Assembly (NCBI GenBank): GCA_043806835.1
Contig: JAZDGQ010000007.1
Span: forward strand, 2,831-66,830
Source: Pseudomonadota bacterium
GTDB taxonomy: Bacteria; Pseudomonadota; Alphaproteobacteria; Micavibrionales; UBA2020
Direction: 5' to 3'
Length of the DNA stretch: 64,000 bases
Both the position numbers and the translations under genes were made by a program. Positions within the stretch are counted from its first letter, which is position 1. Every line of letters starts with the position of its first letter. Positions 24,695 through 26,249 of this stretch are shown piece after piece. The notes under the pieces were generated by a model. That model saw only the letters and a list, made by a program, of their open reading frames with translations. It was not told the DNA's origin and searched no databases.

Positions 24695-25330
24695 TTAATA
24701 GATATACCATTCACTTATCCCCACCCCGGCAGGATTGCTACGCGTCGGAACCTTTTCGACGACCACATTCACCGTTTTTTGTATTGTCCCGCTTTTTCCG
24801 CCTGCACGATAGGTGATCAGCAGAGAAATATCAAACTCCCACTGGTACTTATCCACAACCAACCCCTCCTTGAGCAGAACAGGGGTCTTTGAGGGAACCG
24901 ATGTGAAGATCAGCTGCTTTTTATACATATCATCTAGCAATCCGGCGCCCACGAGAGCCTTTTTGAAACTCGCCCATCCTTGCGGAGTAAAGAGAGGCAG
25001 AGACGAAGTAAAACGCTCCTCCACGTCATTAAATCCGAATGTCATAATCTGCGCCGCAGACTGCACCGCCCAGTTCGTTACGGTTGTTTTCTCCATATTC
25101 GGAGATTTGAGTGCAGACAGCTCCGTACTTCTGCCTTCAACGCTTTCTGCAAAATGACGATCCACTCTATCCTTTGTACTCACATAGAACATAAGGAGAC
25201 CCGACAGCACCAGAATGAATACCACCTGAATGTTGGCGATCCATATCATGTTGCGATAGCCGTCGCGGTAATAAGAATTCCTTTTCTGATTCCGGTTAAA
25301 CTCCACGGAAACTGTCATATTGTTATCCAT
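24695..25330 (-). CDS. icmL: type IVB secretion inner-membrane protein IcmL/DotI (TraM-like)
   Basis: 211 aa. YYRDGYRNMIW followed by a TM helix and a periplasmic domain. Size and position match DotI. 8-bp overlap with the upstream paralogue. Confidence 0.7.
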   Translation of the reverse strand: MDNNMTVSVEFNRNQKRNSYYRDGYRNMIWIANIQVVFILVLSGLLMFYVSTKDRVDRHFAESVEGRSTELSALKSPNMEKTTVTNWAVQSAAQIMTFGFNDVEERFTSSLPLFTPQGWASFKKALVGAGLLDDMYKKQLIFTSVPSKTPVLLKEGLVVDKYQWEFDISLLITYRAGGKSGTIQKTVNVVVEKVPTRSNPAGVGISEWYIY

Positions 25331-26249
25331 TGTCCATCGCTATCCATTGTTCGATACCCACCCCGTTGGGATTTTCCAGCGACGGCACGCGTTCTATCAC
25401 CATCCTGAGCATCAGGCTGTCGTTGCGACTGGCGGCTCCGGACTGGTACGACACACTCAACGGCAAATCCACCACCCAGCGGTATTTCCCGTTGCGGATG
25501 CTTTCTTCCCTGATGATCGGGGCGCTGCGCGGCTGCGCGGTCACCACCTGCTGCCCCGCCTCGACCGACTCCATGATTCGCGACTTCTGCAGCGCGCTGG
25601 TGAACGTCTCCCATCCGTGCCGGGTGAAGTTGCGGGAGGAGTTCTGCATCCGCCGCTGATAGTCATGGAACCCGAACGTCATCACCTCGACCGCCGACTG
25701 CGCCGCCCACGACATCAGAGCGGATGTGGCCATATTGGGGCGATCAAGCGGCACCAGCTGCATGATGCGCCCGTCCGCCGTCGTGGCGAAATAGCGATCC
25801 TGCGATGCGGCTGCATTCATATATACGATGAACGTCAGGATCAGCACGACAATGATGATGGATTCGGCAATCACGATTCGCATCATGTTGCGAAAACCGT
25901 CGCGATAAAATTCATTGCGTATGACCACAGACATCAACGGCCCGCCGGCAACAACCTCAAGGGGAGCAGAAAAAGCGGCCGCACCGGATGTACCGTCCCC
26001 GGACATCTTTTTTCCGCTCGGGGAGGAAGGTTCTCCGTGAACTGCCGCACCCCCGGGTCTGGCGGCACCGGCATTCCTGGAGGGCGCGGAGTTGTTTTTG
26101 CCGCTGCCGAGAATCATGGACGCCGACTTTATCAGTTTCGACAACGGGCTCTCGACCGGCGCAGCGCCGCCGGCTTCCGGCACTGGCACATGCGCAGACA
26201 GGATGTCCCCCCCTTTGTTCTCTGATGGCTCGTCGTCGATATCATCCAT
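25323..26249 (-). CDS. second full-length IcmL/DotI paralogue with ~100-aa low-complexity N-terminal extension (icmM/dotJ position)
   Basis: Residues ~110-308 align by eye with the 211-aa IcmL-like protein (FYRDGFRNMMRIV+TM; ...WAAQSAVEVMTFGFHDYQRR... vs ...WAVQSAAQIMTFGFNDVEER...). The N-terminus is G/A/P/S-rich. Confidence 0.65.
   Translation of the reverse strand: MDDIDDEPSENKGGDILSAHVPVPEAGGAAPVESPLSKLIKSASMILGSGKNNSAPSRNAGAARPGGAAVHGEPSSPSGKKMSGDGTSGAAAFSAPLEVVAGGPLMSVVIRNEFYRDGFRNMMRIVIAESIIIVVLILTFIVYMNAAASQDRYFATTADGRIMQLVPLDRPNMATSALMSWAAQSAVEVMTFGFHDYQRRMQNSSRNFTRHGWETFTSALQKSRIMESVEAGQQVVTAQPRSAPIIREESIRNGKYRWVVDLPLSVSYQSGAASRNDSLMLRMVIERVPSLENPNGVGIEQWIAMDNG

Follow-up and report, generated by a model that had tools for sequence, protein, structure and literature searches.

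How is a secretion machine put together when it encodes, side by side, two complete versions of a subunit of which many of its relatives have just one? The question is raised by a stretch of 64,000 nucleotides (the window) from an alphaproteobacterium of the Micavibrionales (assembly GCA_043806835.1, contig JAZDGQ010000007.1). Two adjacent genes of this stretch encode members of the DotI/IcmL family of Dot/Icm-type (type IVB) secretion systems: a long copy of 308 amino acids (25323-26249) and, directly downstream, a short copy of 211 amino acids (24695-25330), both with an ATG start and a stop codon. Coordinates are those of the window, and features lie on its minus strand unless a strand or another locus is given. 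A previous inspection of the letters, the sequence-only reading, had proposed that these are tandem full-length paralogues, the first with a disordered N-terminal extension of about 100 residues. Our analysis confirms that both genes encode full-length DotI/IcmL paralogues. We consider it probable that the two proteins form a VirB8-like linker, a hetero-oligomer that docks the DotO ATPase, and that the tail of the long copy is a disordered tether with a docking helix.

The evidence for family and fold is consistent across methods. The two proteins align without a gap over 192 positions, with 69 identities (36%; BLASTP, E=2e-48), so the similarity along some 190 residues that had been noticed by eye holds in a pairwise alignment. 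Both exceed the cut-off (27.7 bits) of the Pfam family PF11393 (T4BSS_DotI_IcmL), the long copy with 186.7 bits (3.4e-55) and the short copy with 120.5 bits (7.2e-35), and both match the sequence of the DotI crystal structure 3wz4 (4e-27 and 4e-19, respectively), with residues 6-136 of the 144-residue chain covered and hence nearly all of the periplasmic domain. Weaker matches connect both copies to R64 TraM (3wz3) and lpg0120 (5cnl). Single-chain AlphaFold models, built on alignments, show confident transmembrane helices and periplasmic domains in both proteins, and Foldseek superposes them on DotI (3wz4 and 3wz5) with target-normalised template modelling (TM) scores of 0.93-0.96 for the long copy and 0.89-0.92 for the short one, at root mean square deviations of 1.0-1.3 Å. 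After DotI, Foldseek ranks TraM (3wz3, TM-score 0.86-0.88) and VirB8 proteins, including full-length TrwG from the R388 cryo-electron microscopy structures; the matches to VirB8-type proteins have E values of 1e-5 to 1e-3. A type II topology is predicted, with one hydrophobic helix per protein (residues 122-146 in the long copy, 29-47 in the short one) ahead of the folded domain. In the long copy, the single transmembrane helix lies at 25812-25886 (hydropathy maximum at residues 125-143; AlphaFold helix 113-146) and the periplasmic VirB8-like domain at 25326-25811, as placed by the 3wz4 match, AlphaFold and Foldseek. The short copy consists of a 28-residue tail, the transmembrane helix and a complete periplasmic domain. 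The juxtamembrane motif reads FYRDGFRNM in the long copy and YYRDGYRNM in the short one. The claim that both genes encode this motif, the helix and the whole periplasmic domain is borne out.

Which of the two is the DotI? In Legionella, the gene upstream of DotI encodes the short DotJ, as the sequence-only reading stated; in the Legionella locus that we read (L086) it has 94 amino acids. Neither protein of the window is of this kind, a chain of about 94 residues made of a tail and a transmembrane helix without periplasmic domain: the NCBIfam model IcmM_DotJ (cut-off 100 bits) gives 26.8 bits for the long copy and no match for the short one, and both proteins have the full periplasmic domain. 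The NCBIfam equivalog for IcmL_DotI (IcmL_DotI_only, cut-off 175 bits) places the long copy above its cut-off (189.1 bits) and the short copy below it (127.5 bits). The long copy, which passes this threshold and has the single DotI of related genomes as its counterpart by orthology, is the true DotI orthologue, so the upstream gene is no stand-in for DotJ merely by position. The current labels of the two proteins at NCBI, which already holds an identical long protein, are [quoted passage not shown] and, for the short one, "DotI/IcmL/TraM family protein."

The two copies also differ at a residue of known importance. Phenylalanine 15 of Legionella DotI is needed for the polar localisation of the DotO ATPase (PMC11474061). 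The juxtamembrane cytoplasmic tail of the long copy, GPLMSVVIRNEFYRDGFRN (25887-25943), aligns to LTVVALRNKFYKD of Legionella DotI and is nearly invariant in A2; its F114, within RNEFYRDG, corresponds to F15. The equivalent place in the short copy is taken by Y20. Among the related proteins, 82 of 85 long or single copies have Phe here, and short copies have S, Y, T, K, A or V. Of the two copies in the window, only the long one has the F15-type Phe.

The tandem arrangement is not a peculiarity of the window. A scan of species-representative genomes found a relative in at least 263 of them, and the best 80 (loci L006-L085) are all alphaproteobacterial metagenome-assembled genomes (MAGs), among which labels such as Micavibrio sp., M. 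aeruginosavorus, Pseudobdellovibrionaceae or Bdellovibrionales (the old placement of Micavibrio) and Rhodospirillales are common. When these loci are combined with others fetched by protein identity, which gives counts that are not phylogenetically independent, about 29 genomes, including all those nearest to the window, have a long DotI, a second DotI directly downstream and then dotH; about 52 related genomes have a single DotI followed directly by dotH. The junction between the two copies varies from -65 to +79 nucleotides among the tandem relatives. In the window, the short copy begins within the end of the long one, its start codon overlapping the latter's stop codon (ATGGATAA, 25323-25330), and translational coupling of the two through this overlap is plausible. 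Dot/Icm-type systems in Micavibrionales MAGs have been mentioned in passing (Needham et al. 2022, PMC9418006), and the genome paper on M. aeruginosavorus ARL-13 found no evidence of a type IV system (PMC3189940). The Dot/Icm-like cluster may have a role in epibiotic predation.

What is the history of the short copy? For the periplasmic domain, we computed a neighbour-joining tree from 128 columns with 200 bootstraps. In it, the main clade of short copies is monophyletic in 81% of the replicates, and all alphaproteobacterial copies, whether long, short or single, stand apart from L. pneumophila DotI and TraM in 80%. Within the same genomes, long copies have a mean distance of 0.48 and short copies of 1.06, i.e., the latter are about 2.2 times more divergent. 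The main clade, which comprises all short copies except those of L038 and L081, has signatures of its own: an MD start, conserved as MD(N/R/S), an NIQ motif in the transmembrane helix and a C-terminal GISEWYIY. We also estimated the ratio of nonsynonymous to synonymous substitution rates (dN/dS) between the window and L090, from which all selection figures are taken. It is 0.049 for the core of the long copy (residues 103-308), 0.17 for the short copy, 0.14 for dotH and 0.18 for dotG; the short copy evolves faster yet is under purifying selection. The short copy is thus the derived paralogue, and tree and distances point to a lineage-specific duplicate that has diverged asymmetrically. One could see in it a redundant or decaying gene with no distinct role, given that it evolves some two to three times faster, falls below the equivalog cut-off and has lost the conserved Phe, and that many related genomes manage with one DotI. 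We find this very unlikely: the gene is intact in about 29 species-level genomes, its main clade keeps the signatures just described, its dN/dS resembles that of dotH and dotG, and its product models as a confident full DotI fold. The duplication probably occurred within the Alphaproteobacteria, independently of the one in Coxiella, because the short copy groups with alphaproteobacterial DotI (80% bootstrap) in a tree where L. pneumophila DotI is the only member of the Legionellales. Two genomes show a further pattern. The second DotI of L038 (4649-5284) and of L081 (4634-5227) joins the main short clade in 0 of 200 bootstraps, and the long DotI of both falls in with the single-copy, Micavibrio-like type, a pattern suggestive of another independent duplication or of extreme divergence.

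The other unusual trait of the locus is the N-terminal extension of the long copy. L. pneumophila DotI starts with MAEDALTVVALRNKFYKD, so that 14 residues precede the F15 of its RNxFY(R/K)D motif; the long copy reads ...GGPLMSVVIRNEFYRDG, with 113 residues ahead of F114, and thus has about 99 extra residues. Their content of G, A, P and S is 55%, compared with 27% in the remainder of the protein, in line with the G/A/P/S-rich N-terminus that the sequence-only reading had described. Is this region translated, or does the real start lie at an internal methionine (M82 or M106), leaving the low-complexity region untranslated and the DotI of ordinary length? There are in-frame ATG codons at residues 45, 82 and 106, the Shine-Dalgarno-like element of the annotated start amounts to a weak AAGG 8 nucleotides upstream of the ATG, and in one relative (L005) the gene caller produced a 206-residue version beginning at the Met of MTVVVRNE. 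Against an internal start, dozens of relatives with 50-80% identity keep both the N-terminus, M(V/D)DIDDE or more broadly M(V/D)D(I/L)D(D/N)E, and an ESPLSKL motif; the tail indels that separate the window from its closest relatives (L015 and L090) are multiples of three; the dN/dS of the tail motif is 0.009; and the guanine-plus-cytosine content falls precisely at the annotated ATG, from about 62% (mean over the three codon positions of the extension) to 37% upstream (26250-26503). The AAGG element is also found in L015. Because start and motif are conserved, the indels stay in frame, dN/dS is low and the upstream composition and AAGG fit, the extension is judged to be translated, and an internal start is extremely unlikely. 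A mis-annotated start of the long gene, with the true start beyond the low-complexity region, would have voided the point; it was rejected on conservation, in-frame indels, dN/dS and the compositional step at the ATG. The short call in L005 comes from a long-read assembly with several broken genes; an in-frame TAG interrupts the DotI tail (5575-6000 of that locus), which is otherwise readable in frame. Since neighbouring genes are split too, this is probably a sequencing error, not a true tail-less variant. We also considered the tail as a fused remnant of an upstream gene (DotJ or DotK) and rejected it, as the tail has no transmembrane segment and, in a profile search of 1.84 billion representative proteins, no homologue elsewhere.

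Extensions of this kind are widespread. The juxtamembrane motif is found in 118 of the 120 best homologues of the long copy, preceded by 8 to 137 residues (median, 81.5), which answers the question of conservation in related genomes that the sequence-only reading had raised: long extensions are normal in a large Micavibrio-related alphaproteobacterial clade. The median tail is 99 residues in tandem genomes and 51.5 in single-copy ones. Legionella DotI has 212 amino acids throughout the genus, with no extension, and none of 283 matches to plasmid-borne DotI covered it, so that the supposed absence from other DotI proteins holds in both sets. A Brucella sp. plasmid, for example, encodes a single 214-residue DotI without extension, followed by DotH, a VirB10-like gene and IcmT. 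When a profile built from just the extension was run against these 1.84 billion proteins, the matches were limited to two DotI fragments of the same family and two unrelated repeat proteins, with no counterpart elsewhere. One of the latter (P0268), of 593 amino acids and from an unrelated source, contains about 12 copies of SGASIFSTIAKAIPSVISGISSLFGGDNNN, an amphipathic helix followed by FGG and polar residues; its likeness to the DotI tail motif is one of pattern only and probably due to convergence.

The extension is not uniform. Its acidic N-terminus, MDDIDDEPSENKGGD (26205-26249), has a net charge of -6. There follows a conserved short motif, PVESPLSKLIKSASMILGSGKN (26094-26159), in which an amphipathic helix capped by S-P precedes a Gly-rich stretch and Lys, and then a variable linker rich in G, A, P and S (residues 53-102, 25944-26093), predicted to be disordered, whose length varies between relatives and whose indels are in frame. 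The AlphaFold confidence score (predicted local distance difference test, pLDDT) is below 50 at residues 6-33 and 48-106, and the only helix is at 35-47 (ESPLSKLIK..ILGSGK; hydrophobic moment, 0.52). A table built from 35 homologues gives the consensus (V/I)(E/T/D)-S-P-(L/V)-(S/I)-K-(L/F)-(I/V/L)...G-G-G-K-K. The rates of evolution follow the same division: dN/dS is 0.43 for residues 1-30, 0.009 for 31-57 and 0.44 for 58-102, and the motif is 96% identical to L090 compared with 41-48% for its flanks. The proposed disorder of the N-terminus was hence right for most of its length; it did not foresee a constrained helix at 35-47. The Uversky charge-hydropathy plot did not separate tail from folded domain, so the call of disorder rests on AlphaFold confidence, composition and evolutionary rate.

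How might two such proteins work together? In Legionella, DotI and DotJ form a stable 2:1 complex in the inner membrane, and DotI and TraM are structural homologues of VirB8 (Kuroda 2015, PMC4454188). The N-terminal tails of DotI and DotJ bind DotO; the F15E substitution in DotI abolishes polar DotO localisation and intracellular growth, and F15E in DotJ has no phenotype. The DotJI trimer corresponds to the VirB8 trimer of R388, by which the outer VirB4 ring is held (PMC11474061), and in situ modelling places DotI:DotJ as six linkers docking the outer DotO subunits (bioRxiv 10.1101/2023.03.22.533729). By analogy, the two proteins of the window would be VirB8-like linker subunits in the inner membrane of a chromosomal Dot/Icm-type machine. 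Long and short copies would assemble through their transmembrane helices into a hetero-oligomer, as in the DotI2:DotJ1 trimer of Legionella and the VirB8 trimers of R388; their cytoplasmic tails would dock the DotO ATPase, encoded at the end of the operon; and their periplasmic domains could provide the linker or arch from the inner membrane to the core complex. The long copy may give the main contact to DotO through its conserved GPLMxVVxRNEFYRDGFRN tail, in which F114 stands for DotI F15. The short copy, its Phe lost and its periplasmic domain kept, could play the part of a "third strand" with weaker contact, like Legionella DotJ. An alternative is that the paralogues do not co-assemble and make separate homo-oligomers, like TraM, at different positions or assembly states of the machine. 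Both copies keep complete periplasmic domains capable of forming rings or arches, R64 TraM makes homo-hexamers and the periplasmic domain of DotI forms rings in crystals (PMC4454188). Nonetheless, the overlap of stop and start codon and the close spacing of the genes point to joint production of the copies, and loss of the DotO-contact Phe in one copy only is easier to reconcile with a mixed trimer than with two independent rings that each bind DotO; separate assemblies are unlikely in our view.

The extension would add to this linker a translated, mostly disordered cytoplasmic tether beside the ATPase, displaying its acidic end and the S-P-capped helix followed by GGGKK. The helix could be a short docking motif that binds either a partner in the cytoplasm, such as DotO, DotB or the coupling complex, or the surface of the membrane. 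It might instead be purely a membrane anchor, an in-plane amphipathic helix that with its basic residues folds the tail onto the inner membrane and binds no protein. Its hydrophobic moment, the spacing of its hydrophobic residues (i, i+3, i+4, i+7) and the GGGKK that follows would suit this, and the pattern resembles that of membrane-targeting helices such as MinD's. Simple amphipathicity would, however, not demand conservation as tight as that seen at the S-P cap and at specific polar positions (K at +4, N/K at +7), and a pure membrane anchor seems possible but on the whole doubtful. At the bolder end, the ESPLxKL...GGGKK helix on its flexible tail could be a new type IVB docking element that brings cytoplasmic partners (an ATPase, the coupling complex or substrates) to the DotI linker and that evolved together with the second DotI subunit among relatives of the epibiotic predator Micavibrio. 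We rate this as improbable; if true, the element would belong to the changes that adapted a Dot/Icm-like system to a lifestyle unlike that of the Legionellales, possibly a contact-dependent attack on other cells.

Several observations weigh against a DotO-docking hetero-oligomer with a docking tail. Unlike DotJ, the short copy has a complete periplasmic domain, and for this reason it may do more than DotJ or something different. Relatives with a single DotI and the homo-hexamer of R64 TraM indicate that a second subunit is not generally required. The AlphaFold confidence of the tail helix is modest (pLDDT about 55). The S-P-helix motif was found in 16 of the 29 tandem genomes and in none of the 52 with a single copy, an association confounded by shared ancestry. 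IcmT, the second DotO receptor of Legionella, was not found in the window. Finally, the only Legionellales member of the tree is L. pneumophila DotI. With these points taken into account, the mixed linker docking DotO remains our preferred reading.

The genes around the pair are those of a Dot/Icm-type (type IVB) secretion system encoded on the chromosome. The long and short copies open a cluster of nine genes on the minus strand, which from DotI onward follows the Legionella order icmL-K-E-G-C-D-J-B. Directly downstream of the pair lie DotH/IcmK (23433-24572; Pfam PF12293, 7.5e-72) and a short DotG/IcmE-like protein of 444 amino acids with a TrbI/VirB10 C-terminal domain (22102-23436; Pfam TrbI, 5e-10; NCBIfam DotG/IcmE, 5e-42, and TraO, 3e-26, both under the cut-off), an arrangement repeated in related loci. 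An IcmG/DotF-like protein (21341-22105) has a weak match (NCBIfam IcmG_DotF, 22.8 bits; cut-off 200) at a position that fits the Legionella gene order. The icmC/dotE position holds a TraQ-like or DUF6750-containing membrane protein (20223-21179; NCBIfam conj_TraQ, 29 bits; weak Pfam DUF6750), the icmD/dotP position a DUF6750 protein (19630-20013; Pfam, 30.4 bits; cut-off 27), and an IcmJ/DotN-like protein follows (18902-19612; NCBIfam IcmJ_DotN, 90.9 bits; cut-off 100). The last gene encodes a DotO/IcmB/TraU-family ATPase of 1024 amino acids (15785-18859), placed after icmJ as in Legionella. This protein has no match in NCBIfam or the PDB, and in Pfam only a weak, sub-threshold one to TraC_F_IV; it is identified by gene order and because tblastn aligns it to DotO/TraU-family genes in 3784 plasmid records, 3704 of them with at least 80% coverage and mostly conjugative plasmids. 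The best plasmid matches are 38-44% identical and are on alphaproteobacterial megaplasmids (Methylorubrum, Bosea, Rhizobium). The profile libraries under-represent this family, given that full-length alignments connect the protein to thousands of plasmid genes. We looked for a DotI beside the DotO homologue of the Bosea megaplasmid, where the gene arrangement differs and the locus is uninformative. Between flgK and dotH there is no further DotI- or DotJ-like open reading frame.

The rest of the window consists of housekeeping genes, including aroK, aroB, accA, xerD, carAB, greA, proS, ppdK and genes for the molybdenum cofactor, and flgK and flgL diverge upstream of the long DotI. A mobile or plasmid origin of the cluster was considered and is unsupported, since its flanks are housekeeping (aroK, aroB, accA, carAB, greA, proS) and the flgK-flgL neighbour is syntenic in relatives. 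Two side observations concern other genes. The DotG/IcmE-like protein varies in length among close relatives (444 amino acids here, 901 in L001 at 8722-11427, 755 in L004 at 8971-11238; 1048 in Legionella), and gain or loss of a central repeat region is therefore implied. A protein resembling FHA and YscD cytoplasmic domains (33470-35768) adjoins a trypsin-like serine protease, with housekeeping genes around.

The region between the secretion operon and flgK has features of its own. In an alignment of 13 related intergenic regions, a non-coding block, TTAAGCAGTTAATACTAGACGTTATTTCGCAAGTCAGTATTCT (26354-26396), is conserved and may act as promoter or operator for the secretion operon. The block (TTAAGCAGTTAA..ACTAGACGTT..CAAGTCAGTATTCT) lies about 100 nucleotides upstream of the long DotI, is common to many relatives of the tandem type and holds an imperfect inverted repeat, AATACTAGAC / GTCAGTATT. 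A generic scan for sigma-70 promoters and terminators upstream of the operon did no better than on shuffled sequence and did not flag the block. On the plus strand, a perfect sigma-54 promoter consensus, TGGCAC-ACCTC-TTGC (26470-26484), stands upstream of flgK, and its complement GTGCCA...AGCAAG is kept in nearly all of the 13 regions. Because of this conserved consensus, the flagellar hook-associated genes appear to be sigma-54 dependent and to share a divergent control region with the secretion operon. The mechanical open reading frame of the divergent flgK starts at a GTG (26504); the conserved FlgK N-terminus, MTIALDAAISGL, begins at an ATG (26555) with AGGAAA ahead of it, and 26555 is probably the true start.

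These findings bear on a current question in work on Legionella, namely how the VirB8-like link is constructed and regulated. This lineage offers natural variants of it: an accessory subunit that is a full-length paralogue rather than a truncated DotJ, a key DotO-contact Phe that is kept in one of two subunits only, and a main subunit with a long disordered tail, one motif of which is as constrained as the folded core. Such features are concrete mutational targets for asking how VirB8-like tails organise the ATPase ring. They also draw attention to a widespread Dot/Icm-like system, apparently inherited vertically and with a relative in at least 263 species-level alphaproteobacterial genomes (many labelled Micavibrio), in a group in which a role for type IV secretion has hardly been considered.

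How new, then, is this design? Part of it is already known: tandem full-length DotI genes occur in Coxiella, and the DotI/DotJ pair of Legionella is the functional model. The locus shares with the latter the DotI-family fold, the type II topology, the RNxFY(R/K)D motif with its Phe, the place directly upstream of dotH-dotG-dotF, two related subunits side by side and the restriction of the critical Phe function to one of them. It differs in that DotJ, of 94 amino acids and without periplasmic domain, is encoded upstream, whereas the second subunit here is full length and downstream; in the far longer tail that precedes the Phe; and in its host, an alphaproteobacterium instead of a member of the Legionellales. 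Coxiella burnetii resembles it in having tandem full-length DotI genes, IcmL.1 and IcmL.2 (names in PMC3102713), and no DotJ, which is restricted to Legionella and Rickettsiella; Coxiella has a duplicated DotI instead (PMC4454188), much as the sequence-only reading had noted. R64 TraM and plasmid-borne DotI/IcmL belong to the same family and fold and are followed by DotH- and VirB10-like genes, but they are single-copy proteins of about 214 residues without extension, in conjugation systems. VirB8 of type IVA systems (TrwG of R388) has the same single transmembrane helix and NTF2-like periplasmic domain, and the N-terminal tails of its trimer bind the outer VirB4 ring, but it is no member of the sequence family; we know of no type IVA VirB8 with a long disordered tail that bears a conserved motif. 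As far as the searched literature shows, three features are undescribed: the apparently independent duplication in this alphaproteobacterial lineage, a full-length paralogue that alone has lost the DotO-contact Phe, and the long tail with its strongly constrained helix. The locus is a real, lineage-specific variation on a known design, and not a new kind of system.

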